Source of the DNA: Verrucomicrobiota bacterium
Lineage (GTDB): Bacteria; Verrucomicrobiota; Verrucomicrobiia; Limisphaerales; JBBRPK01
NCBI GenBank assembly: GCA_038228235.1
Contig: JBBRPK010000007.1
Location: 5,813-69,812 of the forward strand
Direction of reading: 5' to 3'
Length of the DNA: 64,000 nucleotides
The position numbers and the translations under genes were made by a program. The notes beneath the pieces are model-generated. The model did not search any database and was not told where the DNA came from. It was given only the letters and a program-made list of their open reading frames with translations. Positions 2,542 to 26,836 of this stretch are shown here, piece after piece (the first letter of the stretch is position 1; each line of letters starts with the position of its first letter).

Positions 2542-5424
2542 CTATTGTTGGATGCGGTAGAATTTCATCAAGCCACCCGGCGGGTGGGGCAGGGGATATG
2601 TAAACGTCGTGCCCGGGACACAGGTCCAGGGCCCCGTCAAGCTTGGCGCGGATTGTAGCGCGCCGCCGCCATTCCAGAACAGGACCGGGTTGCCGCTGGT
2701 CTTGTCGATGGTCAGTCGCGGCAGTGGAGTAGTCACGGCCGTGTTTACTTCCATCTCGTCCAGATCCATGGTCCCATCCGATACTTTGAGGCGCAGACCG
2801 GTGGCGTCAATCGGTGAACCGGCGGCAGACACCGCGAACCGGTGACGCAACCAGGGGTGGAAATCGGGCGGGTTGGAATAGATGTATTGCACGGTTCCAA
2901 TCGTCTCCCAGCCGGTCCCCTTGTCCTCCGTCTCGGGTGTATTGGCGTCGGGCGTGAAGACGGTTGTGAATTGGAGGGTATAGGTCCCGATGTCTCGATC
3001 AAAGTAAGGAGTTGCCAGCGTGTCCCCGTTGTTGCGGCTCCAGGCAATGTTGGTGACGCTGATGCTGTCGATGAAGCTTACTCCAACAAAAGGTTCGGGA
3101 TCGGAAGTGCCTCCGATACCATTGGCCGAAATCCAACTGTGGGAGTTGCCATAAAATCCATCATTGATGTTCGTGGCCCGGTGGAAAGGGAAGTCCGGAG
3201 CCAGAATCGGCCCGAGTTCACTGCTGGCAAATGCGGTAGCCCCCTGGCTGGCAAGGGCCTGGTTGAGCGGAACGGCCGCTCCCGGCGCCGGGGTGAAGAA
3301 CTGGCCCTCGTTGCCGTCCCACGTGATAGTGTACGTCCCGACGGGTGTAATGGTAACCGGGCCAGGGTTTGGCGGCGCGGTGACCGCGGTGTTCACCTCG
3401 ATTTCGTCAAGGTCTGTCGTGCCATTCGCGACCTTGATGCGGATGCCCGTGGCGCTCAGCGGCGCGTTGCTTGAGACAATGTCAAAGCGATGCCGCAGAT
3501 AAGGCGTAAAGAAAGGGGGTGCCGCCTTACTTAAGGTGACTGAGCCGATGTCAGCCCAACCGGTCGTGGCGTCGCCGGTTTCCGGCGTGTTTGCGTCTGG
3601 GGCACTCACACTCGTGAATTGCAAACTGTAAGTGTCGAGCGCTCGGTCAGCGCAAGTGCCGCCGCAACCGAGATCGCCGGGCGTGGCATCCCCATTGTCC
3701 CTGCTCCAGGCGATGTTGGTGACCGTGACTGCTGAGCTGAAGCTTAAGCCGGCAAAGGGTTCCGGATCGGATGTGCCTCCGATGCCGTTAGCCGAAATCC
3801 AGCTATGGGAGTTGCCGTACAAACCGTCATTAAGGTTGGTCGCACGATGGTATGGCAAATTGAGTTGCGGCCCCAGTTCGCTGCTGGCGAAGGCCGTCGT
3901 GCCCTGGGTGGCCAGGGCGATGTTAGAGGGTGGGCCGGCACCGGGATTGGGGTTGTTAAACTGGCCGTCGTTCCCGTCCCAGGTGATGGCAAAGCTGGGG
4001 GCATTGGTGATCAGGACTGTATTTTGTTCGATACCCTGATTGGCGTTAACCTCAATTTCGTCGATGTCGATGTTGTTATTTGGCACCAGGATGCGGAGCC
4101 CTGTGGCCACGATGGGGCCTCCATTTTGAGTGAGATCAAAACGATGACGCAAATAGGACTCGAAATACTTCGGATCATTCAACTTGTAGTTGACGGTGCC
4201 AACTGTCACCCAACCGTGAGCGGCGCCAGGCCCGCACACCTCGACCACGCTGGAGGCGGGATTCGGCATCGTCGTGATTTGCAGTGTGTAAAGGCCCAGC
4301 GACCGGTCCGTAAAACCGCTCGTGTTGTCGCGGCTCCAGGCGATGTTCTCGATATGGATGGGCTTGCCGAAGTTTATCCCGATGAACGGCGCGGGGTCCG
4401 GATGAGCGGAGGCGAAATCTGGTATCCAACTGTGCGAGTTGCCATACAGGCCGTCGTTGACATTGGTGAACCGATGGAAGGGAACGCCGATCACAGGACC
4501 GAGCTGACTGCTGCCAAAGGCCACTGCGCCGCGATTGAGAGAGGCATCGTTCTCGGGGACAGATGCGCTGGCGCTGAAATTGCTTTGGTTGCGGTCCCAG
4601 ACAATGGAGAAACCGGCCGCGGACTGGATCTCGACGAAGTTGCTGATGGGCGGTAATGCGTCGGGAATTGGGTTCACTTCGATTTCGTCAATGTCGATGC
4701 TGCCGTCCGAGACCTTGATGCGGATGCCGGTGGCTGCGATCGCCGCGCCCCCCTGGGCCACGTCGAAGCGGTGCCGCAGATAGCTCGAGAAACTGGCGTC
4801 ATTGGCGCCTGCGAGGTAGGTGACTGAGCCAATGGTGTTCCAGCCGGTGGCCGGATCCCCCGTATCTGCCGTCGTGGCATCTGGCGAACTCACCGTGGTG
4901 TATTGGAGCGTATAGGCGCCACTCGCGCGATCAGTGAGGGTGCCGCCGCAGCAATCATCCGGAATGTTGCCGTTGTCACGGCTCCAGGCGATGCTTTTGA
5001 GCTGGACGTTGGCGAACGGGTCGAAAGCCAGGCCGCAAAACGGATCGGGATCGGAGGTCCCTCCCACGCCGTTGGCCGAAATCCAGCTTTTGGAATTGCC
5101 GTAAAGACCATCATTGAGATTCACCGCCCGGTGAAACGGAATGCCGAGAACCGGTCCCAAGTCGCTGCTCGTGAACGGCACGGTCCCATTGCTGGCCAGG
5201 GCGATGTTGTTAGAAGGACCGGCCCCGGACAGAGGGCTGCTAAACCCGCCGTCATTGCCATCCCAAGTGATGGTGAAGCCCGGCGCATTGGTGATGACCA
5301 CGCGCGGGCTTAGGGCTTGGGCAGAAGGCATGAGGAGCGGGCCCAGCGCGATGAGAAACAGCCACCGGGCGAGCGAATTGCCACCCGAGGCTTGCCGATA
5401 TGAAGAACTAATTTTCTGATTCAT
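2542..5424 (-). CDS. secreted protein made of four tandem ~200-aa discoidin (F5/8 type C)-like modules plus a C-terminal beta-sandwich tail ending 'KFYRIQQ'
   Basis: The ORF spans 2542..5484 (GTG), with ATGs at 5481 and 5424. I prefer 5424 because it gives a normal signal peptide ('MNQKISSSYRQASGGNSLARWLFLIALGPLLMPSAQA'). Each module carries 'ITWDGN.G.F', 'NDG(L/F)YGNS(H/K)SWI', 'IAWSR(D/N)N', 'YTLQ', 'LRHRF', 'ATG(I/L)R(I/L)KV' and 'D(I/L)DE(I/M)EVN'. The stop of the upstream giant gene overlaps the GTGATGA start cluster, so the two genes are co-transcribed. Confidence 0.8.
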   Translation of the reverse strand: MNQKISSSYRQASGGNSLARWLFLIALGPLLMPSAQALSPRVVITNAPGFTITWDGNDGGFSSPLSGAGPSNNIALASNGTVPFTSSDLGPVLGIPFHRAVNLNDGLYGNSKSWISANGVGGTSDPDPFCGLAFDPFANVQLKSIAWSRDNGNIPDDCCGGTLTDRASGAYTLQYTTVSSPDATTADTGDPATGWNTIGSVTYLAGANDASFSSYLRHRFDVAQGGAAIAATGIRIKVSDGSIDIDEIEVNPIPDALPPISNFVEIQSAAGFSIVWDRNQSNFSASASVPENDASLNRGAVAFGSSQLGPVIGVPFHRFTNVNDGLYGNSHSWIPDFASAHPDPAPFIGINFGKPIHIENIAWSRDNTSGFTDRSLGLYTLQITTMPNPASSVVEVCGPGAAHGWVTVGTVNYKLNDPKYFESYLRHRFDLTQNGGPIVATGLRILVPNNNIDIDEIEVNANQGIEQNTVLITNAPSFAITWDGNDGQFNNPNPGAGPPSNIALATQGTTAFASSELGPQLNLPYHRATNLNDGLYGNSHSWISANGIGGTSDPEPFAGLSFSSAVTVTNIAWSRDNGDATPGDLGCGGTCADRALDTYSLQFTSVSAPDANTPETGDATTGWADIGSVTLSKAAPPFFTPYLRHRFDIVSSNAPLSATGIRIKVANGTTDLDEIEVNTAVTAPPNPGPVTITPVGTYTITWDGNEGQFFTPAPGAAVPLNQALASQGATAFASSELGPILAPDFPFHRATNINDGFYGNSHSWISANGIGGTSDPEPFVGVSFIDSISVTNIAWSRNNGDTLATPYFDRDIGTYTLQFTTVFTPDANTPETEDKGTGWETIGTVQYIYSNPPDFHPWLRHRFAVSAAGSPIDATGLRLKVSDGTMDLDEMEVNTAVTTPLPRLTIDKTSGNPVLFWNGGGALQSAPSLTGPWTCVPGTTFTYPLPHPPGGLMKFYRIQQ
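2743..5304 (-). repeat. four tandem intragenic protein-coding repeats (about 2743-3360, 3391-4023, 4045-4638, 4672-5304)
   Basis: The motif series listed for CDS 2542..5424 recurs four times in the translated ORF. Boundaries were derived by counting residues (aa ~61-271, 283-480, 488-698, 709-914 of the 980-aa ORF). Confidence 0.85.
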
Positions 5425-5480
5425 ATTTTCTTTGTGTTTTGATGTTTGGTTTTTGGTTGTGCCGAAATTACGCGGGCTCA

Positions 5481-8400
5481 TCACGGTTGCTGTGGTGTGA
5501 CCAGCCGATAGAATCTCTGCCCCGCCGGCGCTGCCTGGGGTAGCAGCAGCTCGACCGTATGGCTTGTGATCCCCGGCGGCGCATCTGCCAGTTTGCTCCA
5601 GGGGCCGTTGCCGGGATCGGTTCGGTAAAGCACCGAGTAGCTGCGGCCAGCCGTGGCCAGAAAGCTCAGCCGCACGTTGAACGGTTCGTTGGTTGCGTCA
5701 AGATGCATTAAACTGTGTGGGTCATTTGGATCGGTGCCCGCAAGATACTCCTGCAGATCGGTATAACCGTCGCGGTCACTGTCAAAGTTGGCGTTGTCCA
5801 CATAAGGATTCAAACCGTTCGCCAATTCCCAAACATCCGGCATCCCGTCACCATCGGTATCCACGCCTCCACCCGTGGCCGAGGTCGTTATCGTGATGCT
5901 TCGTGTCCCAAGAATATTGCCCGCGCGGTCGCACGCGACGAAGGTGAACGGATTGGTACCGAGGAGCAGGGGCACGCGGGCCTGCCAATTGGTGACCGAG
6001 GACCATGCGACCGCCAAAAGGTCGGTGCTGCCCTGGAGTTTAAGCTGGCCGATGTCCAACCAACCAGTGCCGGTGATTGTGGCAGTAGCGCTGTTAGTCA
6101 AGAAGTCCTGCCCGTTATTACTGGTGATAGCGAAGGGCTGGGGGGCGGGCAGTTGAGCTAAGGCAAAGGCCTGGCGCGCCGCGATGTAAGAGGAGCCCCC
6201 GGCGTAGTTTTGCCCGACCACGCTGCCATAATGCGCCAGCCAGGGGGCCATATACGAAGGCGTAAAAACGCTCTGGCAAAGATCATAAACATGACCGAGG
6301 TAGAGCCGCCGGGTCGCCGGATTATTATTGAACTTGCTGAAGTTATAGGACGGCGCGGCGTAAATCGGGCTCGTCGCCGAAGCGGAGAAAACGAAATCCA
6401 TGTCCCAGGGCAGAAAGTGCGCCCGCCCGCCGTCCGAGGGTGTGAAAAGACGCAGGTTGTGCGCCAGGCCGCCGTTCGGGTTAAAATAAATATCGCCGAT
6501 GCCACACAAAACCGTCAGCGCGGCGATTCGCAGCGCTTCGTCCACATCCAATGCTGCGCCAATTTGGGCGTCAAATTGTGCTTGCGGCAGGCCGAAGGTC
6601 TGGCAAAGCCGCATGATTCCCGAGAAGTTGTCCTCTCGCGCGCCGTGCCGCATGTCAAAAGGCGAGCGGTATTGCTCCTTGTCATTGCCCAAATCAACAA
6701 AGTCCGTGCCGACTTGCGCCAGGTTGGGCACCGGCAGCTTGACCCCCTCATAGTTTCCATTCACCGTGACACTCGGTTCGTAGGTGATGTCATAGTTAAG
6801 CACCGCGCCGGGAACATTAAACTGGTCTTGCACGAACACTCCGCCGTAAGCCGCCATTTGGAGGATGGCTGTGCCGGTGTGCAGCGTCTTGGGCGTGATA
6901 AAATAGCAGAGGTCCGCATATTGGCAGACAATCCCCGCGTGATGAAACATCTGGAAAATGTAAATCTCATCCTGCCAGCGGACTGTGGGCGCGCGGCCCG
7001 ACCGATCGAGGTTGACCTCGGCTTGCACTCCTCGAAACAGGTGCGTGGGCGGGAACGCGACGGTGTAGCTGATGTAATCGTCCCCATCGCGCGCGCGCCC
7101 GGCTGCCGAACCGTGCAAGCGAACCCCGACATCGTAAAAGACTTCCGATCGGTCGTAGATCAGGGTTCCCCCCGCGAAACCCTGGCTCATGACGTTGGTC
7201 GCGTTGAGCACAAAATCCCGGTCCCGATCGAGTTGGATCAGCCGCAGTTCGTGCGCGGGCAGGCTAGCGCCCTGATTATCGGCCACTTGGTAGAGCGCGC
7301 TTGAGTCTGGCCCTTTGGCGGGAGCAAACGCTGCCGCCCCCAGGGTATCGCCGGCACTGATGTAAAACTGGACAATCGTCCCCGCACCGAGGGCCGGGAT
7401 GCTGGCTGCCCAGGTGCCATCCGGTTGCGCGCTCATGGCCAGGCTTGCGAAGTTTGTTCCGGGATTGATTCGGTAATTGAGTGCAGCCGAAGCCACTCCG
7501 TCCGGGTCGGTGGCGCGCACCGAGACCATGACCGCTTGGTTCGTTTGGGGGATGATGGGGGTGTGTTTCAGATCTGTGAAGGTCGGCCCTGCATTGGCTA
7601 GTCGCCGTGAGTTCATTGCCCCCGGGGTTCCGTGGCGCGGCGGGAGGGTGAGGATTGCTGTCCGGGAGAGCCGCTGCATATAGGCGCTGCTACCCACCTG
7701 CGGTGACCCTGCCAGCCAGCGTGCCCTGTAGCTCACCTCATATTCCTGCCCATCTACGGGAGCAATGTTACCGGCAAACGATGATTCGATGTGGTTGTGA
7801 CTGGTTCGGGGCGGGGCGGTTCCACAGACCAGCAGCACATGGTTCGCGGGATTGTCCGGGTCGGGGATGATGCGGCTGTTGCGGTGGTCCCCAAGCCAGC
7901 GCCAGTGGGCGCCCCCGCCCTCGAAGTCCCCGTTCTGGATCAACTGTTGCCGCACTCCGTCGGGGTCGCGAATGACGCTCACATCATCCACCAGCACTTC
8001 GCCCGCATCGAGCAGGCCCAGCCGAAACTCGTTCCAGAAGGTGTTGCCGAAGGTCTGGCCCGACGCCATGCGGTAGGTTATCGTCTGCCAGGCACTACGA
8101 CTGGTTTCATCGCTGTCCGCCCATGCGTCCGGAGTGTTGTTGTCCGCTCGCGGGTCGATCAGCTCGAGGCTGGAGCCTCCGCCGTCGCTCCAGCCGCTGG
8201 CGAACACTTGAATTGAGTTGGCTGGGTTGCCGAGCGCATCCATCAAGATGAGTGTATTCCCGGCGCCAATTTTGCCCGTGAAATTCCCAACGATGCCTGG
8301 ACCCACCTCCGGCCACTTAGCCCGGAGTGCCACCGCATCATTTGCCACCACCAGATAACCGCCCGCGGGTATAACCGTGGCCGCAGGAAAGGCGTACAAA

Positions 8401-11400
8401 ATACCGTTAGCGATCCTCCAGCCATTCAGGTCCACAGGATTCGCGCTGCGGTTATAGAGCTCAATCCACTCTTCGGTGGAGGCAGTGAATGGGGTGGCGG
8501 GCACCACGATGGTAGTGAGGACTAGTTCCGCGCCGAAAGCAACATCTCCGCTTGTGTCCGGCGGATTGACCTCCAATTCGTCGATGCAGGCGCCGGCGCT
8601 AGGGCCGCTATTCGGAACCACCAGTCGAAGGCCTGTCGCCGTGACGGCACTGAAAGTGTAGCGGTGGCGGAGGGAAGGACTGGTGAAGAAGCCGGTGCCG
8701 GTGCTGTGATAATTCAGAGTGCCCACGATGGCCCATCCCGTGTCCGCATTGCTGGTGACCTGCGTGGTCACATCGGGGGTGGTCACCCGGGTGTATTGCA
8801 GAGTGTAGAGCCCGAGAGTGCGATCCGAAAACTGACCCAGGTTGTCACGACCAAACGCGAAACTGCTGACGCTGTAGAGCCCCCCAAAGCGCACGCCGGC
8901 AAAAGCGGGGCTACCCGAGTTGCCGATCCAACTGTTGCTGTTCCCGTAGAGGCCATCCGTCAAATTCAGATAGCTATGAATCGGAGAACCAGCCAGGGAA
9001 TCGATGACAAAGGGCGCCGCGCCCGGCTGCCGCGCCAGGTTCATTGGCGCGCTGGCCAACACCGGCCCCTCCTCCACGAGCCGCAGTCCGCCTCCGCTGA
9101 GCGTCAGGCCTGTGGAGGCGACGGAGCCGAGAAACTGGTGGACTTCAACGGCCAGGATATTCAGTCCCTGAACAAGGTTGCTTCCGGCCAGCGGGACCGG
9201 ACCGATAAAGCTCGCGTTTCCGACCGGCGCCAAGGCGGACGTCCCATACGTGACGGGTCCGGCGGGCATGTTGAGCCGATAAACCTCCACGCCGTTGAGA
9301 TAGAAAATCGCCCCATCATCAACGACGCTCCGGAGATTCAGCCCTACATTGCTCGTGGCTCCGCTGAAATTGAACGCAGTTCTAAAATAATAAGTGCTCC
9401 GACCAGGGGCCAGATGAGTGTTAGCAGTTGCCGGAAGCGCGCTGTTACTAACATACAGTAATGCGGAACCAATCAGCCAGGCGCTATCGTCATACCCGGA
9501 CGCGCGCCACCCAGCGCCGAGGTTCGTGCCCGTATCGTTGAACCGCCATAGCCCATCGATGGGCAGGAGGGTGGAGTTGCTGGTCACCGCGGGCACGGGA
9601 TCAAAAGGCCGGTAGTGGTACATTATTTCGTTAAATACGATTTCGTTGTGGGGCACGAAGATGTTCGACCCGCCGGGCGTCGCCAGCGCCGGCATTATCC
9701 AGTCACCAGTTCCGTCCGGGTGCCGCCCCTGTGGGCTGCTCTGGACAGTGACGGCGTCCAGGAGGAGAAATCCATCGCGCGAATAGAGGAAAAGCTTGTT
9801 TCCATTCCCAACCCCAAAACCCAATTGGGCCTGTGAAAGCGACAGAATGCCGCCGGGGGCGAGTGTGTGCGCAGGAAATATATACCGGGGGGAGCCTTGA
9901 GCGGTTCGACTGATCTGAATCCCTTCCAGTTCAGCGGGTTGATCCCCGTGGTTGATCACCTCAAGCCAAAACGCGTTACTACTTGCCGGAGAGAGCTCGT
10001 TGAAGGTGAGATGGGGCGGCGCTGGCAGGATGTCTGATGCAGTCAATTCCAGGCCGAAAGCGGCATGAACGTTCGGCAGGGAGGGAGTATTAACCTCAAT
10101 TTCATCGAGCGTATTCGTCGTGGCCAGTCGAAGGCGGATGCCGGTGGCCAGGATGGGATTTCCATTGGTCGGGGTGAAATCGAACCGATGCCGCAAGCTG
10201 GGAGTAAAGCCTGGCTGAGCGCTCAAATATTGAATAGTAGCGATGGTGGTCCAGCCGTTGGAGGGATTGCTGGAATTGACGGCGACGGTCGCCGGATCTG
10301 CTGCCAGCGTGTATTGGAAAGTGTAGTTGCCGAGCGAACGGTCCGCGCAAGTGCCCCCGCAAGCCGGCTCGTTGGTATTTCCGTTGTCACGGCTCCAGGC
10401 GATGCTGGAGCAAGCGATCGTCTGGTTGAAGCGCAGAATGATGAAGGGGCTGGCATCGGTTGCCGCGGGACTCCAGGAGCTGGTGCTGCCATAGCGCCCA
10501 TCGTTGAGGTTCGCCGCCAGGTTGGTATTGCTGCTCGTGATTACGTCCACCCCTCGCGACGCCAGGGCGGCGTTCGTTGGGGCCGGCGCCGGATTGCCGA
10601 CAGCGAAAAAGTCGCCATCTTTCCCATCCCACGTCACGTTGTAGCCTGAGGCGCGGTTCACGCGCAATCCGGCGTTGGTTGTGCCTGTGGAGATGTGGAG
10701 TTCGACGGCCAGCACGTTCGTCCCCTGCACCAGATTGCTTGAGGCAATGCTGAAGGGGCCGCTCCAGTTGGCATTCAGCGTGGCGCTGGCGGCCATGGTC
10801 GAGTAATTGACCGCGCCCGCCGGCAAGTTCAGCCGATAAATTTCGGTCCCATTCAGATAGACGACGGCTCCATCTTGAATGATGGGCCGAAAGCTAAACA
10901 ACTGCTTCATCGGATCGTTATCCATCAGGAAAGCGCGTCGAAAATAATAGGTGGTGCGTCCAGGAGTGAGGGGCGTGTTCTTCGAGACCGGGGTATCACC
11001 ACTCCCGGCGTAAAACAAGGCCGGGCCGGAGGCCCAGGTGCTGTCATCGAAAGCGGGACCGCGCCAGCCCGTGCCCAGGTCTGTGCCAGATTCTTCGTAA
11101 CTCCAGGTGTCAGTAATGCCCAGGATTCCGTGGCTGGGGGCTGTCAGCGGCGTGGAACTGAAATTCGCTGCTCCGGGGGTTCCCCCAATCTGCAGGCCGG
11201 CAGTCCAATTCTGGGGCGGCTTGCTGGCGAGATTCACATTCCTCTTCACCAGCGACACTCCGCCCCCGTCCGGCCCCACTGGCCAATCACCGCTGACCCC
11301 GTAGGTGACTGTGTCCATCAGGCGATTGTTATTATCGCGAAGTTCGAGTTTCTCGCCGCTATTGGAGAGCCTGCCGGAGAAGGGTCCAAAGACGTTCGTC

Positions 11401-11774
11401 AGTCCGATCTGCCCCATGAGCGCGGCGGGCGAAATCGCCACCAGCACGTACCCGCCGGCCGGGATAGTGGCACCGCTTGGGAAGTTATAACTGATGCCTT
11501 TACTGAGTTGCCACCCGGAAAGGTCCACGTTGACGGAGTTTTGATTATAGAGTTCCACCCATTCTTGCGTCGGCTCGTTCGTGGCGGGATGATACATGAT
11601 CTCGTTGAACACCACGACGCTATCACCCAAAGCGACGCAACCTCCGAGCGCCAACCAGGCCGCGGCAACGCCGACGAAATGTTTCAACCCGGAAAGTCTC
11701 GATGAGAAGGACCGGCACACAGCCGCAATGCGGGCGGCAGAGATCAGGCACTGGACAACGGTTGCCGGGAACAC
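5481..11774 (-). CDS. giant (2097 aa) secreted multidomain protein: 3x lamin-tail domain (LTD), 2x galactose-binding-like module, 2x discoidin-like module, CotH kinase-like domain, thrombospondin-type-3 Ca-binding repeats
   Basis: It has a signal-like segment 'FVGVAAAWLALGGCVALG'. LTD signatures are 'VVFNEIMYHPA..EWVELYN..DLSGWQL', 'LTFNELSP..FWLEVINHG' and 'EEWIELYNRS..DLNGWRI'. The duplicated module reads '..GT(D/N)LG.GWR..DDS.W..TYYFR..DDGA..YLNG.E.YRLN.PAG'. The discoidin-like modules carry 'NLNDGRYGSTSSWS..IAWSRDNG..LRHRFDF..LDEIEVN' and 'NLTDGLYGNSNSWI..FAFGRDN..LRHRYTF..IDELEVN'. The CotH-type region carries 'YISYTVAFP' and 'RAHFLPWDMDFVF'. The Ca-binding repeats read 'DTDGDGMPDVWE' and 'DSDRDGYTDLQEYLAGTDPND'. 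The tail is 'RFYRLVTPQQP'. Confidence 0.85.
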   Translation of the reverse strand: MFPATVVQCLISAARIAAVCRSFSSRLSGLKHFVGVAAAWLALGGCVALGDSVVVFNEIMYHPATNEPTQEWVELYNQNSVNVDLSGWQLSKGISYNFPSGATIPAGGYVLVAISPAALMGQIGLTNVFGPFSGRLSNSGEKLELRDNNNRLMDTVTYGVSGDWPVGPDGGGVSLVKRNVNLASKPPQNWTAGLQIGGTPGAANFSSTPLTAPSHGILGITDTWSYEESGTDLGTGWRGPAFDDSTWASGPALFYAGSGDTPVSKNTPLTPGRTTYYFRRAFLMDNDPMKQLFSFRPIIQDGAVVYLNGTEIYRLNLPAGAVNYSTMAASATLNANWSGPFSIASSNLVQGTNVLAVELHISTGTTNAGLRVNRASGYNVTWDGKDGDFFAVGNPAPAPTNAALASRGVDVITSSNTNLAANLNDGRYGSTSSWSPAATDASPFIILRFNQTIACSSIAWSRDNGNTNEPACGGTCADRSLGNYTFQYTLAADPATVAVNSSNPSNGWTTIATIQYLSAQPGFTPSLRHRFDFTPTNGNPILATGIRLRLATTNTLDEIEVNTPSLPNVHAAFGLELTASDILPAPPHLTFNELSPASSNAFWLEVINHGDQPAELEGIQISRTAQGSPRYIFPAHTLAPGGILSLSQAQLGFGVGNGNKLFLYSRDGFLLLDAVTVQSSPQGRHPDGTGDWIMPALATPGGSNIFVPHNEIVFNEIMYHYRPFDPVPAVTSNSTLLPIDGLWRFNDTGTNLGAGWRASGYDDSAWLIGSALLYVSNSALPATANTHLAPGRSTYYFRTAFNFSGATSNVGLNLRSVVDDGAIFYLNGVEVYRLNMPAGPVTYGTSALAPVGNASFIGPVPLAGSNLVQGLNILAVEVHQFLGSVASTGLTLSGGGLRLVEEGPVLASAPMNLARQPGAAPFVIDSLAGSPIHSYLNLTDGLYGNSNSWIGNSGSPAFAGVRFGGLYSVSSFAFGRDNLGQFSDRTLGLYTLQYTRVTTPDVTTQVTSNADTGWAIVGTLNYHSTGTGFFTSPSLRHRYTFSAVTATGLRLVVPNSGPSAGACIDELEVNPPDTSGDVAFGAELVLTTIVVPATPFTASTEEWIELYNRSANPVDLNGWRIANGILYAFPAATVIPAGGYLVVANDAVALRAKWPEVGPGIVGNFTGKIGAGNTLILMDALGNPANSIQVFASGWSDGGGSSLELIDPRADNNTPDAWADSDETSRSAWQTITYRMASGQTFGNTFWNEFRLGLLDAGEVLVDDVSVIRDPDGVRQQLIQNGDFEGGGAHWRWLGDHRNSRIIPDPDNPANHVLLVCGTAPPRTSHNHIESSFAGNIAPVDGQEYEVSYRARWLAGSPQVGSSAYMQRLSRTAILTLPPRHGTPGAMNSRRLANAGPTFTDLKHTPIIPQTNQAVMVSVRATDPDGVASAALNYRINPGTNFASLAMSAQPDGTWAASIPALGAGTIVQFYISAGDTLGAAAFAPAKGPDSSALYQVADNQGASLPAHELRLIQLDRDRDFVLNATNVMSQGFAGGTLIYDRSEVFYDVGVRLHGSAAGRARDGDDYISYTVAFPPTHLFRGVQAEVNLDRSGRAPTVRWQDEIYIFQMFHHAGIVCQYADLCYFITPKTLHTGTAILQMAAYGGVFVQDQFNVPGAVLNYDITYEPSVTVNGNYEGVKLPVPNLAQVGTDFVDLGNDKEQYRSPFDMRHGAREDNFSGIMRLCQTFGLPQAQFDAQIGAALDVDEALRIAALTVLCGIGDIYFNPNGGLAHNLRLFTPSDGGRAHFLPWDMDFVFSASATSPIYAAPSYNFSKFNNNPATRRLYLGHVYDLCQSVFTPSYMAPWLAHYGSVVGQNYAGGSSYIAARQAFALAQLPAPQPFAITSNNGQDFLTNSATATITGTGWLDIGQLKLQGSTDLLAVAWSSVTNWQARVPLLLGTNPFTFVACDRAGNILGTRSITITTSATGGGVDTDGDGMPDVWELANGLNPYVDNANFDSDRDGYTDLQEYLAGTDPNDPHSLMHLDATNEPFNVRLSFLATAGRSYSVLYRTDPGNGPWSKLADAPPGITSHTVELLLPQAAPAGQRFYRLVTPQQP

Positions 11775-11807: not shown

Positions 11808-11825
11808 TATCCCCCCAAATGGGGG
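11808..11825. repeat. TATCCCCCCAAATGGGGG hairpin motif (copy 1 of 2) in the response-regulator / giant-gene junction
   Basis: It has a C6-AAAT-G5 palindrome. It lies 32 nt downstream of the response-regulator stop (11857) and 34 nt upstream of the giant-gene ATG (11774). It closely resembles 20733-20753. Confidence 0.5.
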
Positions 11826-11856: not shown

Positions 11857-12489
11857 TTAACGACGAAACTTTATCGCCGCCTCGGTGCGGGATCGGACGT
11901 GCAGTTTGCTATAAACGGCCTTCAGATAGCCGCGCACGGTCTCGGCGCTCAACCCCAGGGCTTCGGCAATCTCCTTATTCGTGTAACCGCGTGAAATGTA
12001 CTCGAGAACGTCCGTCTCGCGTTTGGAAAGGTTCTCCACCCCCTTGTCAGAGGCGCCTTGCCGGCGGAACGACTGCACCACCTTGCGCGCAATGTAGCTG
12101 GACATGGGCGCGCCGCCTCGGTGGACTTCCTCGATGGCCTGCAGAATCCCTTCCGTCGTCGAGCGCTTGAGTAAATAGCCGGACGCGCCCATTTCGAGCG
12201 CGCGAAAGATTCGATCGCTGTCGTCGTAAACCGTCAGCATCACGATGTGGATATCCGGCGCCAGGGACTTGAGTTGACGAACGCACTCCACTCCGGAGAT
12301 GCCTGGCAGGTTGATGTCCATCACCACCACATCGGGTCGGCGGCGCGGCCACAGCTCGAGCGCCTCCTCGCCGGAGGAAAAGGTCGCGACGCACTCGAAG
12401 CCCGCGGCTTCCCCTATCAGATGCGCCAGGTTTTCCCGCACCTGCTTGTCATCCTCCACAATCGCCACCCGGATGCTCAAGAACCCCAC
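11857..12489 (-). CDS. NarL/LuxR-family two-component response regulator
   Basis: REC motifs are 'VAIVEDD', 'DVVVMDINLPGISG' and 'GASGYLLK'. The C-terminal LuxR helix-turn-helix reads 'LSKRETDVLEYISRGYTNKEIAEALGLSAETVRGYLKAVYSKLHV'. The start is either GTG at 12489 or TTG at 12480. Either choice overlaps the kinase stop at 12477-12479. Confidence 0.9.
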   Translation of the reverse strand: MGFLSIRVAIVEDDKQVRENLAHLIGEAAGFECVATFSSGEEALELWPRRRPDVVVMDINLPGISGVECVRQLKSLAPDIHIVMLTVYDDSDRIFRALEMGASGYLLKRSTTEGILQAIEEVHRGGAPMSSYIARKVVQSFRRQGASDKGVENLSKRETDVLEYISRGYTNKEIAEALGLSAETVRGYLKAVYSKLHVRSRTEAAIKFRR

Positions 12490-15400
12490 GCCTTTCCGGT
12501 CTTGGGCAGCGGCAAATGGAGCAGCAGCGAGGTGCCGGACGAAGGATCGCTTTTGAGATCGAAGCTTCCACCGAGATCTTCGATGCGCCGGCGGATGTTG
12601 ACCAAGCCGTCATGGCCGCCGCCCTGCCCGAACGAAGCAGCGATGCCTTTTCCATTGTCAGCAATGTTGATCTTCAATTCACCTTCGTCCATGCGCAACC
12701 GGAGCCAAACTTCGCTGGCGCTGGAATGTTGGACGACATTGTGCAACGCCTCCTTCACAGCGAGAAACAAATGATGCCGGGTTTCGGTGGAAAGCGGATG
12801 CTCCGGCAAATCCGCCGGGATGTCCAGCCGGCATCGAATCGAGGTGGGGCGGAAAAACTCCTCGGCGAACTGTGAGACGTAATTAGCGAAGTTATCCAAC
12901 GAATCGTTGCGCGGGTTCACCGCCCAAACGATCGCATCCATCGCCCGGACCGCTTCGCGCGCGGTGACCGATATCTGGCTCAGGTTGGCCGACACTTCCT
13001 CCGGCTTGTGCCGGTGCTTCTGGCCGACTTCAGTGAGCAAGGCGATGCGGGTCAGGTTCGCGCCCAGTTCGTCGTGGATATCCCTGGCAATGCGTGTGCG
13101 TTCTTGCTCAACCGAATGTTGCTCCAGGACGCGCTGCAACTTCCGCCGCAACCGGCGCACCGCGGTCAAACGCACCATCAAACCGCCGACACCCAGAAAC
13201 ACAATGAGGGCAGACGCATCGAACCACCGGGATTGCCAGAAATGCGGGCGAACCGAAAAGCGGATGGATGCGCCGGCCTCGTTCCAAACACCGTCGTTGT
13301 TGCAGGCCTTGACGCGGAAGATGTAACGCCCCGGCGGCAGATGGGGATACGCTGCCACCCGCTGCGTCTCTGCCTCCACCCAGTCCTTTTCCAAACCGTC
13401 GAGCCGATGCTTAAAACGATTGCGCTCCGGCGCTACGAGGCTCAAGGCGGTGAATCGAAACTCCACGCGTTGCACCCCGGGCCCGAATTCCAGCGCTGAC
13501 CCTGCGGTGTTTGCCATTGGAACTTCCATTCCGTCCGTCAGCACTTGCTCCACTACTACTGGAGGCGGCTTCTCATTCACCGAGATGTTGTGCGGGTCCA
13601 CCATCACCAGGCCCTTGACTGTGGAGAACCACAGATTGCCGTCGCGCGTCTTGAGTCCCGCCGGATAAAATCCTCCGGTGCACTCAAGACTCTCCATGCC
13701 CTCGGCGCGACCATATGAAATTGCATTCACCCGTGAGGCCTTCCCTCCGGCGATAGCTTCGAACTCGCGCGCGGCCACTCGAAATATGCCTTGATTGCAT
13801 CCGAACCAAAGATTGGTCCGATCGTCCTCGAGGATTTGCGAAATCACCTCGTCAGGCAATCCCTGCGAACGGGTGAACGAGGCGATTTTCCCCTCCTGCA
13901 TCCTCGCTAATCCGCCGCCCGTCCCAATCCACAAAACCCCGTTCGCATCGCGATGAAGCGCGCGGATGAAATCGCTCGGCAGACCGTCACGGCGGCCAAA
14001 TGTGGTGAGACGCCCGCGTTCCAATAGTTGGAGCCCCCCTCCGCTTGTCCCCACCCACAAACCTTCGCGCGCCTCCTGCACGAGAGCTGTGACGGGATGG
14101 ACCGGCTTTCCCTTCGAGGGCTGGGCATCGGAAACGTTGCCATCTCGAAATGATTTCAACCCCCCCTGCATCGTGCCCATCCATAAACCGCCGTGGCCGT
14201 CCTCGCAGAGCGCGACCACCGGTTCGTCATTGCCCGGACGCGCCACGGGAAAGTTCTTCACTTCGCGCCCGCGCATCTGAAACAAACCTCCCCCCCATGT
14301 TCCGGCCCATAACGAGCCGTCCCGGCCTGAAAGCAATGACCAGATGCATTCGTTGTCGAGAAGGTAATTGGCATAGTAGGGAGCAAGCACGCCGTTGCGC
14401 CGCGCGCTGAGTCCGCCGCAGTTTGAACCGATCCACAACGTCCCCTCCAGGTCCTCGGCCAGCGACATGACGACATTATGCGCGAGGCCGTCGCGCGTGG
14501 TGAAAGTCGTGAGCTTGCGCGGCTTGACGCGGTTTAATCCGCCGCCAGCGGTTCCCACCCACAGGCTGCCTTCGCTATCCTCGAACAGGCAGCGCACAGA
14601 ATTGTCGGAGAGCCCTTCCTGCGTGGTGAGCGAGGTGAAATGTCCGTGGCGCAACCGGCGCAAACCTCCATTGGCGGTGCCGGCCCACAGGTCGCCGTTG
14701 CGGGTCTCGCGCAAGGCCCAGATCGCTTCGAGCAATTGTCCGGGCTGCTCCCGGTACACTCGCACGGTTTCGTTGCTCACCGCCCCGATGTAGCCATTCA
14801 CCCCCCCGAACCAGAGTTGACCAGAGCGCCCCGCCTCCGCCGCCAGCACGCTGCTAAAAGAACTTGGGTCAAAGCCCCTGGGCTTCGCGAGAGGCCCCTC
14901 GCTGGAGCGCGTGAGAAGCTGATTGTCTGCGACCGCCCAAAGTGTGTTGCTGCCATCCACGCACGTCACTAAAATCGACGACCCGGATGGGGGCCCAAGC
15001 GCGGTTGGTTGAACAAATTTATCCTCGCGCCAACAACTTAGCCCCGCCGGTGTTCCAGCCCAGACTTGGCCGGATCGATCCTGTGCCAGGGTGGTTACCG
15101 TGTCGCTGCGCAAGCCGTCCAGGCGGGTCAGCGAGCGGGATCTGCCATCGCGCAAACCGATCAACCCGCCCCCCTCCGTCCCGATCCAGAGCGTGCCTTC
15201 GCGCCCCGCGAGCAGGCAGAGAACACGCGTGTTCGGCAGCTCCGAGGCTTCCCCGAAAACCTGGAACCGGAGGCCGTCGAAACGCGCCAGCCCATTCAGC
15301 GTTCCGATCCACAGGTACCCATCCGACGTCTGTTCAATCGCCGTGATCGTGTTTCCGGGCAGCCCATCGGCTGTCTGCCACACATCGATGCGATAATCGC

Positions 15401-16136
15401 TCGACGCCTGACCCGCCTCCACCGAGAGCGTGGTGCCGACCGGCGCAAAACGGTTTACCAACGAGCGCGTGATGGAGGCGCCGCTGATTGATTTCGCCTC
15501 GGCCGGGAGCGGTTCGCGATCGGCCGAGGACGCCACCGTGCGCCATATGTTGGTGTCCGTGGCGACCTGAATCTCATACTGCGTGGCCAGGCGATCGATG
15601 AAGTTCCCTTCGCGGTCGCGGCCCCAGACAACCTTGTTGATGCGGGTCGGTAGCGGGAATTCGATCTGCACCCACGCGCCATCGATTCGGTCGGCAATCC
15701 AGCTCCGGCCATTGCCGTAACGACCGTCATTGATGCCTTCGAGTTGATGAATCCCGTAGCCTTGCATTGAGCCGGAGGCTTGCGCGCGCGCGCCGTTCGC
15801 CGCCAGGGCCACGTTGCGCGCTAAACCCTCCGCGGCATAAACCTCCAATTCATCCAGGCAGGGCTCACCTCGGTTCGTGGCGCGGATGGTAAAGCGCAGA
15901 AACTTTGCCTCGACAGGGGCGAATTCTTCCACATTCCGCCGCGGATGCACCGGTTCCCGCAGGGCCGCGGCTGTCGGCAGGGAGAACGCTGCCAAGACAA
16001 GCGCGAGCGTGAAGATTAATTGAGTCACTGGCTTCAATGAGGCATATGCTAAGGCTGGAAACTCTCGACGTAAACAGCTCTCCATCCACATGCGAACGGC
16101 GATCTCAGGGAGCCAGCTACCGGCCAGGCATCCCAT
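12477..16136 (-). CDS. large periplasmic-sensing histidine kinase: discoidin-like domain + beta-propeller repeats + Y_Y_Y domain + HisKA_3/HATPase_c
   Basis: The N-terminal TM/signal is 'VTQLIFTLALVLAAFSLPTAAA', followed by a discoidin-like domain (aa ~76-209). Regulator-propeller repeats include 'DGYLWIGT', 'GTLWIGTEGGGL', 'GSLWVGTAGGGLN' and 'GVLWIGTGGGL'. The Y_Y_Y-like region reads 'YIFRVKACNNDGVWNE' and the second TM is 'ASALIVFLGVGGLMV'. The H-box is 'RIARDIHDELGANLTRI' and the ATPase region reads 'INIADNGKGI..GGHDGLVNIRRRIEDLGGSF'. Alternative starts lie at 16091 and 16085. Confidence 0.9.
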   Translation of the reverse strand: MGCLAGSWLPEIAVRMWMESCLRREFPALAYASLKPVTQLIFTLALVLAAFSLPTAAALREPVHPRRNVEEFAPVEAKFLRFTIRATNRGEPCLDELEVYAAEGLARNVALAANGARAQASGSMQGYGIHQLEGINDGRYGNGRSWIADRIDGAWVQIEFPLPTRINKVVWGRDREGNFIDRLATQYEIQVATDTNIWRTVASSADREPLPAEAKSISGASITRSLVNRFAPVGTTLSVEAGQASSDYRIDVWQTADGLPGNTITAIEQTSDGYLWIGTLNGLARFDGLRFQVFGEASELPNTRVLCLLAGREGTLWIGTEGGGLIGLRDGRSRSLTRLDGLRSDTVTTLAQDRSGQVWAGTPAGLSCWREDKFVQPTALGPPSGSSILVTCVDGSNTLWAVADNQLLTRSSEGPLAKPRGFDPSSFSSVLAAEAGRSGQLWFGGVNGYIGAVSNETVRVYREQPGQLLEAIWALRETRNGDLWAGTANGGLRRLRHGHFTSLTTQEGLSDNSVRCLFEDSEGSLWVGTAGGGLNRVKPRKLTTFTTRDGLAHNVVMSLAEDLEGTLWIGSNCGGLSARRNGVLAPYYANYLLDNECIWSLLSGRDGSLWAGTWGGGLFQMRGREVKNFPVARPGNDEPVVALCEDGHGGLWMGTMQGGLKSFRDGNVSDAQPSKGKPVHPVTALVQEAREGLWVGTSGGGLQLLERGRLTTFGRRDGLPSDFIRALHRDANGVLWIGTGGGLARMQEGKIASFTRSQGLPDEVISQILEDDRTNLWFGCNQGIFRVAAREFEAIAGGKASRVNAISYGRAEGMESLECTGGFYPAGLKTRDGNLWFSTVKGLVMVDPHNISVNEKPPPVVVEQVLTDGMEVPMANTAGSALEFGPGVQRVEFRFTALSLVAPERNRFKHRLDGLEKDWVEAETQRVAAYPHLPPGRYIFRVKACNNDGVWNEAGASIRFSVRPHFWQSRWFDASALIVFLGVGGLMVRLTAVRRLRRKLQRVLEQHSVEQERTRIARDIHDELGANLTRIALLTEVGQKHRHKPEEVSANLSQISVTAREAVRAMDAIVWAVNPRNDSLDNFANYVSQFAEEFFRPTSIRCRLDIPADLPEHPLSTETRHHLFLAVKEALHNVVQHSSASEVWLRLRMDEGELKINIADNGKGIAASFGQGGGHDGLVNIRRRIEDLGGSFDLKSDPSSGTSLLLHLPLPKTGKAWGS

Positions 16137-16192: not shown

Positions 16193-17695
16193 TCACCCGA
16201 GAATGCCCTTCACAACCTCCCCGTGAACGTCGGTCAAACGACGCTCGAGACCGTTGTGGTAGTAGGTCAACCGCTCGTGATCCAGCCCGAGCAGATGCAG
16301 GATCGTCGCGTGCAGGTCATAAACCGTGACGATGCTCTCGACCGACTTGTAGCCAAACTCGTCCGTAGCGCCGTAGCTGAAACCTTTCTTCACCCCCGCA
16401 CCCGCCATCCAGCAAGTGAAGCCTGCCGGGTTGTGGTCGCGGCCCTGGGCGCCTTTCTGGAAGGTCGGCATGCGTCCGAACTCCGTGCACCAGACCACTA
16501 ACGTGTTGTCGAGCAGGCCGCGCTGCTTGAGATCGATGAGCAGCCCCGCGGTCGGCTTGTCGAGCACCGGACCGTGCAGGCTGTATTGCTTGAAGAGCTC
16601 CTTGTGGCCGTCCCAATTGCTCACGCCTTCGCCGCCGGTCTGGTAGGCGCCGTTGAAGAGCTGCACAAAGCGCACGCCTTTTTCCAGCAACCGCCGGGCG
16701 AGGATGCAATTCCGCGCGTAAGCCGCCCGCGTCTCGTGTACCTTCGAGCCGCCTTCATCCGCTCCGTAAAGCTTCAGGATGTGGGCGGGCTCGCTGGAAA
16801 GATTTGCCACCTCAGGAATCGTGAGCTGCATCCGCGCCGCCAGTTCGTAGCTCGCGATGCGCGCGGCCAGTTCCGTGTCACCCGGAAAACGCTCGGCATG
16901 ATGCTCGTTCAGCTTTTGCAGGAATCCGCGCGTGGCCGAGTCCGAGTTCGCGCTGACGGAGCCCGGCCGCGCCAGATTGCGAATCGGATTGGTCGCATTA
17001 AACTCGGTGCCCTGAAACGAAGCGGGCAAAAATCCCGGCGCCCAATTGTTCACGCTGTTTTGCGGCTTGCCGCGGGGATCGGGAATCGCAACGTAGGCCG
17101 GCAGGCTTTGATCGTCGCTGCCCAGGGCATAGGTCACCCACGCGCCCAGGCTCGGAAAGCCGTCCAGCGCATTGCAAGTGGACATGAAGTTTTCCCCCGG
17201 CCCGTGCGTGTTCGTTTTCCCTTGCATGGAGTGAATGAAACAGATGTCGTCCGCCAGTGCCCCAAGGTGCGGGACCAGATCGGAAATCATCTTGCCGCAC
17301 TGGCCGCGCGGCCGGAACTCCCACGGGCTTTTCGTCAGGGCCCCCTGTTCGCCCTGGAAGGTGATGAGCTTCTCCTGGCCCGGCATTGGCTGACCGTTCC
17401 TGCGAATGAGTTCCGGCTTGTAATCAAAGGTGTCGAGCTGGCTGCAAGCCCCGCTGCAAAAAATGACGATGACGTTCGTGGCGCGGGGTGTAAAATGGGG
17501 TTCGCGCGGCGCATACGGACTGCCCGGATGAATCACCGGTCGAATCGGTTCCTTGCCTGATACTGTTGCCGCCAGCAATCCCTGCCGCCCGAGCAGGTGC
17601 GTGAGGGCGATCGCGCCCAGGCCGATTCCGGTGTCGGCCAGAAATCGGCGGCGATCGAGCAGCGGGCTTTTGAATAAAGGGAAAGGCTGGCTCAT
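16193..17695 (-). CDS. DUF1501 domain protein (sulfatase/alkaline-phosphatase-like fold), Tat-exported
   Basis: It has a Tat signal '[18 protein letters not shown]' and the hallmarks 'WCTEFGRMP' and '[21 protein letters not shown]'. An ATGA overlap (17692-17695) links it to the upstream PSCyt gene. Confidence 0.9.
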
Positions 17696-20604: not shown

Positions 20605-20732
20605 TTCCGGCTTGTTAGAATTGTTTAGTGTCACGGTCATTACGTCCACGAGAATCCATCGCATTGGGGTTCACGCAAACCGAACGCACATGGACTACCC
20701 CTGCAAGCATCGGGGCAAATCCTCCAGATAGC

Positions 20733-25262: not shown

Positions 25263-25359
25263 AAAGTAGTTCCAGCCATCTTTCACGGAAAAAGGGGGTC
25301 GCACGCCGCGACGGCGATTGGGCTGACAGAATCATGATTTTGCGGCCGATGATCCTCTC

Positions 25360-26616: not shown

Positions 26617-26836
26617 GTTGCTCCGTTCATAGCACAAGATCCGCTGGAGCGGCAACCGAAACTCCTGGTTTCCATGGCGCCGGCCCCGGTGCGGCTCAAG
26701 GCGCAGGTTGGTTAAAAACAACTAGGATGAACAAAACGCAACAGTTTTAATCTTACGTCGAAAAAATTTCATTTCAGCAGAATTGCTCAATGAACAAAGG
26801 TCTTTGCTGGTTTTGAGAATGCTGGGGCGCGGAGGC

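Follow-up and report, generated by a model that had tools for sequence, protein, structure and literature searches.

Bacillus CotH is a kinase whose substrates, CotB and CotG, are products of the same gene cluster (PMC7821199). CotH domains are also present in cellulosome-related proteins of Clostridium thermocellum, where the cellulosomal protein Cthe_0239 combines them with lamin-tail domains (LTDs) in the order LTD-LTD-Fn3-CotH, and in CseP (PMC6083626). Our literature search returned nothing on LTD/CotH proteins in Planctomycetes-Verrucomicrobia-Chlamydiae (PVC) bacteria, or on the function of DUF1501, DUF1549 and DUF1553. Here we analyze a 64,000-nucleotide stretch of contig JBBRPK010000007.1 (assembly GCA_038228235.1; positions 5,813 to 69,812, hereafter the window), derived from an uncultured soil or freshwater verrucomicrobium of the Limisphaerales, which encodes an LTD/CotH-type protein, termed G, followed by a second large protein, termed S. 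Judging from their sequences, G and S are multidomain proteins exported through the Sec pathway, and the pair is conserved in Limisphaerales/Pedosphaera-type Verrucomicrobiota. Their genes lie in a same-strand cluster that encodes a PSCyt2/PSD1 protein, a DUF1501 protein, a sensor histidine kinase (HK), a response regulator (RR), G, and S. What is new here is a family of discoidin-like domains inside LTD/CotH-type exported proteins, residing in this previously unnoticed conserved cluster.

The open reading frames (ORFs) of both proteins were found on the same strand at the coordinates given in an earlier, sequence-only reading of the region (the initial annotation), and the following features define their probable gene products:

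5481-11774, minus strand: G, giant exported multidomain protein; maximal ORF of 2097 aa, probable start TTG 11687.
11625-11687, minus strand: predicted signal peptide of G, MKHFVGVAAAWLALGGCVALG, cleaved before DS (homologue N-termini and hydrophobic segment).
2542-5424, minus strand: S, exported four-module protein; 960 aa from ATG 5424, with the maximal ORF (980 codons) extending to GTG 5484.
5314-5424, minus strand: predicted signal peptide of S, ending WLFLIALGPLLMPSAQA before LSPR (alignment with homologue N-termini).

The signal peptides of both families point to an extracytoplasmic location. Comparison of homologue N-termini demonstrated that the signal peptides of all G homologues end at the Ala preceding DSVVVFNEIMY, and thus the start of G is probably TTG 11687, not 11774, which yields a product of ~2068 aa. 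A protein 100% identical to G (P0121, 2049 aa) is present in a public assembly. Its gene call opens with MGDSVVVF at approximately codon 49 of the maximal G ORF, 10 nt after GGAGG; this call drops the signal peptide found in all homologues and is likely a start-site mis-call.

In agreement with the initial annotation, six modules of ~200 aa with the full motif series are present, four of them in S and two in G:

10086-10667, minus strand: module G1 (aa 370-563), CGGTC loop; alignment, hidden Markov model (HMM) E 3e-69.
8562-9134, minus strand: module G2 (aa 881-1071), no Cys loop, lacking the N-terminal WDG hairpin; HMM positions 26-202, E 1e-47.
4669-5301, minus strand: module S1 (aa 62-272), vicinal CC loop; alignment and HMM.
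4042-4635, minus strand: module S2 (aa 284-481), no Cys loop; alignment and HMM.
3388-4017, minus strand: module S3 (aa 490-699), CGGTC loop; the modelled module (AlphaFold2 and Foldseek).
2740-3357, minus strand: module S4 (aa 710-915), no Cys loop; alignment and HMM.

In the alignment the six modules are 36-63% identical to each other, and their scores with the family HMM (E 1e-47 to 1e-86) are far beyond chance. None of them is matched by a Pfam or NCBIfam model, and the whole S protein has no Pfam match. Among 49 aligned modules scanned at E<=10, none was significant against Pfam PF00754, the best F5_F8_type_C hit being E 0.11 for one member, and the module profile retrieved nothing meaningful from the sequences of the Protein Data Bank (PDB). 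The fold was assigned by modelling S module 3 with AlphaFold2 on the basis of 49 diverse modules (pLDDT 94.5, pTM 0.91). A Foldseek comparison of this model with the PDB produced 127 matches at E<=1e-3, the best of which are F5/8-type-C/CBM32 structures (3ggl, 4a42, 2v72, 4zxe, and 1k12; E ~5e-6), and fucolectin structures are found as well. The target-normalised TM scores of these matches are 0.72-0.77 at an identity of 10-20%, and the model superposes on solved members of the β-sandwich jelly-roll fold (discoidin/F5-8C/CBM32). The discoidin-like character proposed in the initial annotation is thus upheld at the fold level, and we regard the modules, as modelled, as an uncatalogued sequence family of the discoidin/F5-8-type-C/CBM32 β-sandwich fold.

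An exhaustive search of 1.84 billion protein-cluster representatives with the module profile identified 1,258 proteins at E<=1e-3, of which 284 reach E<=1e-30; individual proteins carry as many as 11 copies. In four other module proteins, the partner domains are HYR, ASH-type Ig, cadherin-like, and PATR repeats, which by their sequence assignments are the vocabulary of large extracellular proteins. The Ser of the module motif GSSE is nearly invariant. Another characteristic feature of the family is a loop following AW(S/G)RDN, which contains Cys residues in modules S1, S3, and G1 and lacks them in the other three modules, as had been noticed before. In 502 modules from S homologues, this loop is of the CCGG type in 203 cases and of the CGGTC type in 173, and has no Cys in 112; two Cys at another spacing occur in 2 modules, a single Cys in 0, and in 12 the pattern did not define the loop. 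The position of one Cys is constant, and the second Cys stands at either -1 or +4 relative to it. With two adjacent loop Cys in 376 of the 502 modules and a single Cys in none, the loop behaves as a disulfide pair. Because the loop Cys occur all-or-none and only in pairs, a disulfide is predicted, and this pattern would support both a stapled loop and an oxidising extracytoplasmic location.

Upstream of G on the same strand lies a two-component system and, farther upstream, a pair of planctomycete-type genes:

11857-12489, minus strand: NarL/LuxR-type response regulator (Pfam Response_reg and GerE), with an orthologue beside S or G in 11 other loci.
12477-16136, minus strand: sensor histidine kinase with a first transmembrane segment, a sensor of ~910 aa predicted to be extracytoplasmic, a second transmembrane segment, HisKA_3, and HATPase.
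15492-15959, minus strand: permuted discoidin-like domain of the histidine kinase (aa ~60-215); module HMM and sub-threshold Pfam F5_F8_type_C.
16193-17695, minus strand: DUF1501 protein with a twin-arginine-like signal; co-clustered, with orthologues of 82-85% identity beside S and the two-component system in L011 and L013 (loci described below).
17692-20664, minus strand: PSCyt1/PSCyt2-[permuted discoidin-like domain]-PSD1 protein; permuted domain at nt 18790-19257.

The position of the two-component system directly upstream of G, reported in the initial annotation, was confirmed with Pfam, and tblastn demonstrated that the association is conserved in related loci. The HK sensor consists of a permuted discoidin-like domain, Reg_prop propellers, and Y_Y_Y. 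Since transmembrane segments (aa ~38-58 and ~972-994) flank them, all these domains are predicted to be extracytoplasmic. The permuted domains, which the initial annotation had missed, were revealed by the module HMM at aa 107-207 of the HK (conditional E 3e-19) and at aa 516-616 of the PSCyt1/PSCyt2/PSD1 protein (1.3e-18). In both proteins the strands that end the module, AKF(L/I)RFTI…EPC(L/I)DELEV, precede the core, which constitutes a circular permutation, and the two domains share 54% identity across 161 residues (E 8e-61). The Pfam F5_F8_type_C model scores just below its threshold at these domains (26.5 and 23 bits versus 28.2). Matching the module HMM on the one side and F5_F8_type_C near the threshold on the other, the HK and PSCyt2 domains form a sequence bridge from the modules to discoidin; the link of the modules to PF00754 by sequence is indirect and passes through these domains only. 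The N-terminal module-like domain is also preserved in HK homologues elsewhere.

The PSCyt2/PSD1 and DUF1501 genes overlap by 4 nt in the window and are located immediately upstream of the HK gene on the same strand. Between the stop codon of the response regulator (11857) and the start of G, at 11811-11825 on the minus strand, we observed a CCCCC-ATTT-GGGGGG hairpin followed by ATACCATTTT. This hairpin was not reported by the consensus terminator scan and might function in regulation or as a weak terminator.

To the conservation of this gene set we turn with a tblastn comparison of the window proteins with 26 fetched loci (designated L001 and onward). The 271 S homologues, all labelled 'hypothetical', contain 3-6 modules each and originate from Limisphaerales, Pedosphaera, and Verrucomicrobiales metagenome-assembled genomes. 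G and S homologues were also found on shared contigs, and, apart from the window, 12 distinct loci have G next to S (L001, L003, L005, L006, L007, L008, L009, L010, L012, L015, L016, and L022). Three arrangements were recorded:

HK-RR-G-S: window, L003/L004, L008, L010, and L016; L006 has RR-G-S.
G-S with no two-component system within 10 kb: L001/L002, L005/L023, L007, and L012.
Five-module S beside HK-RR, no G: L011, L014, L018, and L021; L013 has S-HK-RR.

The HK and/or RR gene stands beside S, with or without G, in approximately 12 of 16 distinct loci and in three gene orders. The S proteins of the five-module subfamily are ~47-49% identical, and no G-type LTD/CotH gene was found in the fetched flanks of L011, L013, L014, L018, and L021. 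Since the five-module S adjoins HK-RR without G, the link between the two-component system and S is, as far as gene order can tell, more general than the G-S link, and of the two proteins, S accompanies the sensor more consistently. In L011 and L013, S and the two-component system are again accompanied by the PSCyt2/PSD1 and DUF1501 genes, with 62-85% identity and in another gene order; retention of the gene set while the order is shuffled argues for functional linkage. The pair occupies positions 16193-20664 (minus strand) in the window, 14501-18387 in L011, and 19256-23181 in L013.

Several genes of the window lie outside this conserved set. Downstream of S on the opposite strand (6-2411, plus) are a homologue of glucose/sorbosone dehydrogenase (GSDH) and a 348-aa ORF with no family match, neither of which was found in the related loci. 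A second planctomycete-type set at 21463-26721 (minus strand) includes a PSCyt1/PSD3/PSD5/PSD4/PSCyt3/PSD2 protein (21463-24411), a β-lactamase-family ORF (24108-25304, the maximal ORF of which shares ~300 nt with the preceding ORF), and an HXXSHH/DUF1552 protein (25360-26721); by its domain content, this set confirms the PVC origin of the window. Finally, a 1196-aa ORF at 35289-38879 (minus strand) has an unusual combination of a prolyl-oligopeptidase S9 unit (β-propeller and catalytic) fused to a C-terminal PhoD-like phosphatase.

The G protein consists of a signal peptide, two blocks of the type LTD - β-domain - module, a third LTD, a further β-domain, an Ig-like domain, the CotH domain, another Ig-like domain, TSP3 Ca-binding repeats, and a C-terminal β-sandwich. 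In addition to the modules listed above, its domains are as follows:

11298-11618, minus strand: LTD 1 (aa 53-159); Pfam PF00932.
10659-11153, minus strand: β-rich domain copy 1 (aa 208-372), called galactose-binding-like in the initial annotation; homologous to copy 2.
9660-10010, minus strand: LTD 2 (aa ~589-705); Pfam LTD stretches and the internal duplication seen with BLAST.
9129-9611, minus strand: β-rich domain copy 2 (aa 722-882); HHalign probability of 100% with copy 1.
8175-8549, minus strand: LTD 3 (aa 1076-1200); Pfam and BLAST.
7599-8162, minus strand: domain with NGDFE..HWR (aa 1205-1392), conserved among homologues, no Pfam match.
7299-7592, minus strand: Ig-like domain (aa 1395-1492); profile match to 4ytg and related chains, E 2e-5, and Foldseek E 2e-6.
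6138-7295, minus strand: CotH kinase-fold domain (aa ~1494-1879); Pfam, profile match to 5jd9, AlphaFold2, and Foldseek.
6492-6494, 6456-6458, and 6402-6404, minus strand: codons of the CotH residues D1761, N1773, and D1791, respectively.
5883-6110, minus strand: Ig-like β-domain (aa ~1889-1964); β-strands in the AlphaFold2 model.
5715-5879, minus strand: TSP3-type Ca-binding repeats (aa ~1966-2020); Pfam TSP3_bac, with weak EF-hand/lanmodulin-like matches.

This analysis bears out the LTD, CotH, and TSP3 assignments proposed before. The internal duplication was recovered with BLAST (aa 54-564 versus 589-1072, 32.6% identity, E 2e-64), as was the third LTD, which follows the duplicated block (BLAST aa 1076-1179) and is also found with Pfam. 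PF00932 scores 153 bits over three stretches, which is above its cutoff; TSP3_bac scores 26.7 bits versus a cutoff of 25; and the CotH model PF08757 scores 32.2 bits versus 23.8, covering aa 1697-1854, that is, the C-lobe only. The NCBIfam scan added no further domain to G, and a search of the PDB sequences with the G sequence alone produced nothing meaningful. The two β-rich copies (aa 208-372 and 722-882) have no Pfam match at E<=10, and their HHalign probability with the module is below 3%. By the look of its motif, the segment of aa 1205-1392 may be a CBM4/9-like jelly roll. The Ig-like domain at aa ~1395-1492 resembles, both in the profile comparison and in Foldseek, the C-terminal Ig-like domain of the Porphyromonas gingivalis peptidylarginine deiminase.

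The CotH domain of G retains the catalytic residues. A profile of 42 G homologues matches Bacillus cereus CotH (5jd9) with E 1e-8; in this alignment D1761 corresponds to the Asp of FDG, H1772-N1773 to HN, and D1791/D1793 to WDYD, and all five residues are invariant across the 42 homologues. Mutation of either D228 or D251 inactivates B. subtilis CotH (PMC7821199), and the 23-residue spacing between the two Asp in 5jd9 is the same as that between D228 and D251. With residue identities based on that study and on the alignment to 5jd9, the equivalents of D228 and D251 and the catalytic-loop Asn are all kept. The AlphaFold2 model of G aa 1390-2097 (pLDDT 90.1) is matched by Foldseek to 5jd9/5jda with E 6e-14 and TM 0.71 over ~410 alignment columns, compared with a 358-residue chain, which is in agreement with a complete kinase fold. 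Because the model matches essentially the whole 5jd9 chain, both kinase lobes are predicted to be present in G. With an apparently intact CotH site in an exported protein, G is a specific candidate for a bacterial enzyme that phosphorylates substrates outside the cytoplasm.

By analogy with B. subtilis, where cotH stands beside cotG and cotB, S could be the substrate or partner of the G kinase domain. The adjacency of G and S in the 12 other loci, the encoding of the CotH substrates CotB and CotG alongside their kinase (PMC7821199), and the nearly invariant Ser of the GSSE motif are all consistent with such a pair. However, the five-module S is associated with the two-component system without G in L011, L013, L014, L018, and L021, so S does not depend on G, and S lacks the Ser/Lys/Arg-rich repeats of the CotB/CotG type; we therefore rate a kinase-substrate relationship as very improbable. 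Its strict form, in which S exists solely as a CotH substrate, was rejected, as S occurs with the two-component system and without G in five loci.

The initial annotation had described G and S as translationally coupled through an overlap at GTGATGA, which would have both proteins made in fixed stoichiometry. Indeed, the junction reads CAACCGTGATGAGCC, the codons GTG 5484 and ATG 5481 overlap or abut the G stop codon, and the promoter/terminator scan found no terminator-like site between the two genes. The overlap thus exists in the DNA, but the N-termini of the S homologues favour another start. All 21 of the 21 homologues inspected have a signal peptide of ~35-45 residues ending just upstream of SPRVV(I/L)TP, a pattern that is reproduced from ATG 5424 (M21) of S, where MNQKISSS…LLMPSAQA is followed by LSPRVVITNAP. 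This ATG is preceded by an A/C-rich leader and is located 54 nt downstream of the G stop codon. The 20 extra residues obtained from GTG 5484 (VMSPRNFGTTKNQTSKHKEN) would lie N-terminal to the signal peptide, and no equivalent of them is found in the homologues. Moreover, the called genes are separated by gaps of 66, 164, 73, and 367 nt in four related loci and overlap in none. S therefore probably starts at ATG 5424 rather than at the GTGATGA overlap, giving ~960 aa, and the start so placed neither overlaps nor abuts the G stop. Since the homologue N-termini fit the downstream ATG and related loci show gaps, coupling through the overlap is not supported, and we give it little credence. Co-transcription of G and S with separate initiation is plausible, because the genes are on the same strand with a short gap and no terminator-like site between them.

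The last ~60-70 residues of G and S constitute one domain family:

5484-5699, minus strand: C-terminal β-sandwich tail of G, ending RFYRLVTPQQP; AlphaFold2 model, HHalign, and tail HMM.
2545-2718, minus strand: C-terminal β-sandwich tail of S, ending KFYRIQQ; HHalign and tail HMM.

The similarity of the two tails, pointed out in the initial annotation, reflects homology: HHalign of the family alignments gives a probability of 97.3% (E 2e-11) over 60 columns, and in the G model the tail is a six-strand β-sandwich. The ending [FYW][FY][RKQ][LIVAT] is found in 100 of 120 S-family and 77 of 120 G-family proteins. In a scan of all ORFs of the window and the 26 related loci, the tail HMM was significant only at extreme C-termini, namely those of G and S homologues and of three unrelated ORFs, and the tail might be the hallmark of a group of exported proteins of these Verrucomicrobiota. 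The unrelated ORFs (L005 18748-21339, minus strand; L005 14593-15609, plus strand; L010 17027-20941, minus strand) have the ending (R/K)(F/Y)(F/Y)R(L/I/V). A tail profile search of a set of 5.8 billion proteins retrieved 32 short fragments, the word prefilter having favoured short ORFs. The tails match no Pfam or NCBIfam sorting domain (T9SS CTD, PEP-CTERM, and similar), isolated tails giving no hit at E<=10, and no C-terminal hydrophobic segment was found in G or S. A role of the modelled tail in envelope retention or routing is plausible.

Taken together, these data suggest that G and S form an exported, lectin-like system that responds to a ligand and carries a CotH phosphotransferase. The six modules would together provide multivalent binding to an extracellular polymer, with a glycan as the most likely ligand, and the common tail domain would retain or route G and S at the cell envelope. 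The HK sensor, which starts with a permuted copy of the module family, would detect the same or a related ligand and switch on G and S through the NarL-type response regulator, the two genes being probably co-transcribed and separately initiated. The CotH domain would phosphorylate a substrate held close by the binding modules. A glycan is proposed as the ligand because CBM32/F5-8C structures predominate among the fold neighbours and because the sensor is of the propeller type; sensors of the Reg_prop/Y_Y_Y type bind glycans in the hybrid two-component systems of Bacteroides. The domain anatomy of G and S is near certain, and glycan binding by the modules and control of G and S by the two-component system are moderately likely; for the composite as a whole, in which function is deduced from domain content, we put the chances slightly above even.

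Several observations weigh against this lectin-like system. The structures of SUN2 and APC10/DOC are also among the fold matches of the module, and such folds mediate protein-protein contacts. In four distinct loci (L001, L005, L007, and L012) G-S has no two-component system within 10 kb, and regulation by it is thus not universal. The ATP-binding residues of the CotH N-lobe could not be mapped by sequence, the match of a CotH-only profile being weaker (E 0.003) and limited to the C-lobe, and an exported kinase faces the problem of ATP supply outside the cytoplasm. Finally, the promoter/terminator scan produced counts at or below the shuffled expectation, with nothing above chance.

The first of these observations leads to an alternative, a possible structural or adhesive surface layer, in which the modules would be protein-protein units, as in SUN and DOC/APC10, and G and S would polymerise or bind envelope proteins without any glycan. 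Besides the presence of SUN2 and APC10-containing structures among the top fold matches, the co-occurrence of the module with adhesin-type Ig, HYR, cadherin, and PATR domains fits such a layer, and the tail domain common to G and S could be its assembly element. However, most of the top fold matches are carbohydrate-binding CBM32 or F5/8C structures, and the HK sensor combines the permuted domain with Reg_prop/Y_Y_Y propellers, a sensor type that binds glycans in the hybrid systems of Bacteroides; a surface layer of this kind is therefore unlikely in our view.

Within the lectin-like system, a more specific role of the kinase domain can be envisaged. The CotH domain of G would be an extracytoplasmic phosphotransferase, targeted by the two modules of G (with the four modules of S as a possible co-binder) to the polymer sensed by the HK, and would phosphorylate that glycan or a surface protein, while the PSCyt2/PSD1-DUF1501 pair would act on the same ligand. 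Fam20B and POMK phosphorylate glycans in eukaryotes. We consider this joint proposal speculative and improbable; if true, the CotH domain of G would represent the first kinase system acting on glycans or proteins at the bacterial cell surface.

For now, the locus is best described as a well-characterised 'conserved hypothetical' system. Verrucomicrobiota of the Limisphaerales/Pedosphaera type are abundant polymer degraders of soil and freshwater, and the majority of the giant proteins that they export lack annotation. A domain family of roughly 1,250 clusters, missing from Pfam, is now defined for curation, and it marks a conserved set that includes the sensor kinase, the response regulator, S, often G, and PSCyt2/PSD1 with DUF1501. 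The widespread and functionally opaque PSCyt/PSD/DUF1501 proteins are thereby linked with a dedicated sensor and with a domain predicted to bind a ligand, and become experimentally approachable.

Comparison with known systems places the components of this locus at different distances from their nearest relatives. The module shares the β-sandwich jelly-roll of the F5/8C/CBM32 domains, represented by the CBM32s of Clostridium perfringens NanJ and GH89 (2v72 and 4a42) and the C-terminal domain of the Bacteroides thetaiotaomicron chitobiase (3ggl), and its sequence logic is similar, with A..A.DG....W in the N-terminal part and ...R...I.E.EV in the C-terminal part. It differs from them in its low identity (10-20%) and greater length (~200 aa versus 130-160), and contains in addition an N-terminal TITWDGNDG hairpin and a long insert with the paired-Cys loop.

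The CotH domain of G has the same atypical kinase fold as Bacillus CotH (5JD9/5JDA) and keeps the catalytic Asp, the loop Asn, and the metal-binding Asp, at an identity of 13% and with an insert of 5-7 residues between the catalytic Asp and the HN motif. Whereas Bacillus CotH is a free cytoplasmic (mother-cell) enzyme, that of G is part of an exported protein of 2000 aa, and, unlike in Bacillus, no CotB/CotG-like substrates are encoded nearby.

The hybrid two-component systems of Bacteroides likewise have a large extracytoplasmic double-propeller sensor encoded beside genes of exported carbohydrate-binding-type proteins. In contrast to these hybrid kinases with AraC output, the window encodes a classical HisKA_3 kinase and a separate NarL-type regulator, the kinase has an extra N-terminal permuted discoidin-like domain, and the cluster contains no SusC/D or glycoside hydrolase genes.

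The initial annotation considered the locus not to be a described system. For the combination of LTD and CotH this does not stand, since the architecture is widely annotated, as in Cthe_0239 (PMC6083626), and many G homologues are named 'lamin tail domain-containing protein' in databases; it does stand for the module family, the G-S pairing, and the cluster of the two-component system with PSCyt2/PSD1-DUF1501, on which the literature search retrieved no relevant publication. Like Cthe_0239, G is an exported protein with lamin-tail domains and CotH in a polysaccharide-associated organism. It differs from Cthe_0239 in having no dockerin, an approximately twofold size, two discoidin-like modules, TSP3 repeats, and a C-terminal tail of the PVC type, and its gene is accompanied by one for a four-module partner and by a dedicated two-component system.

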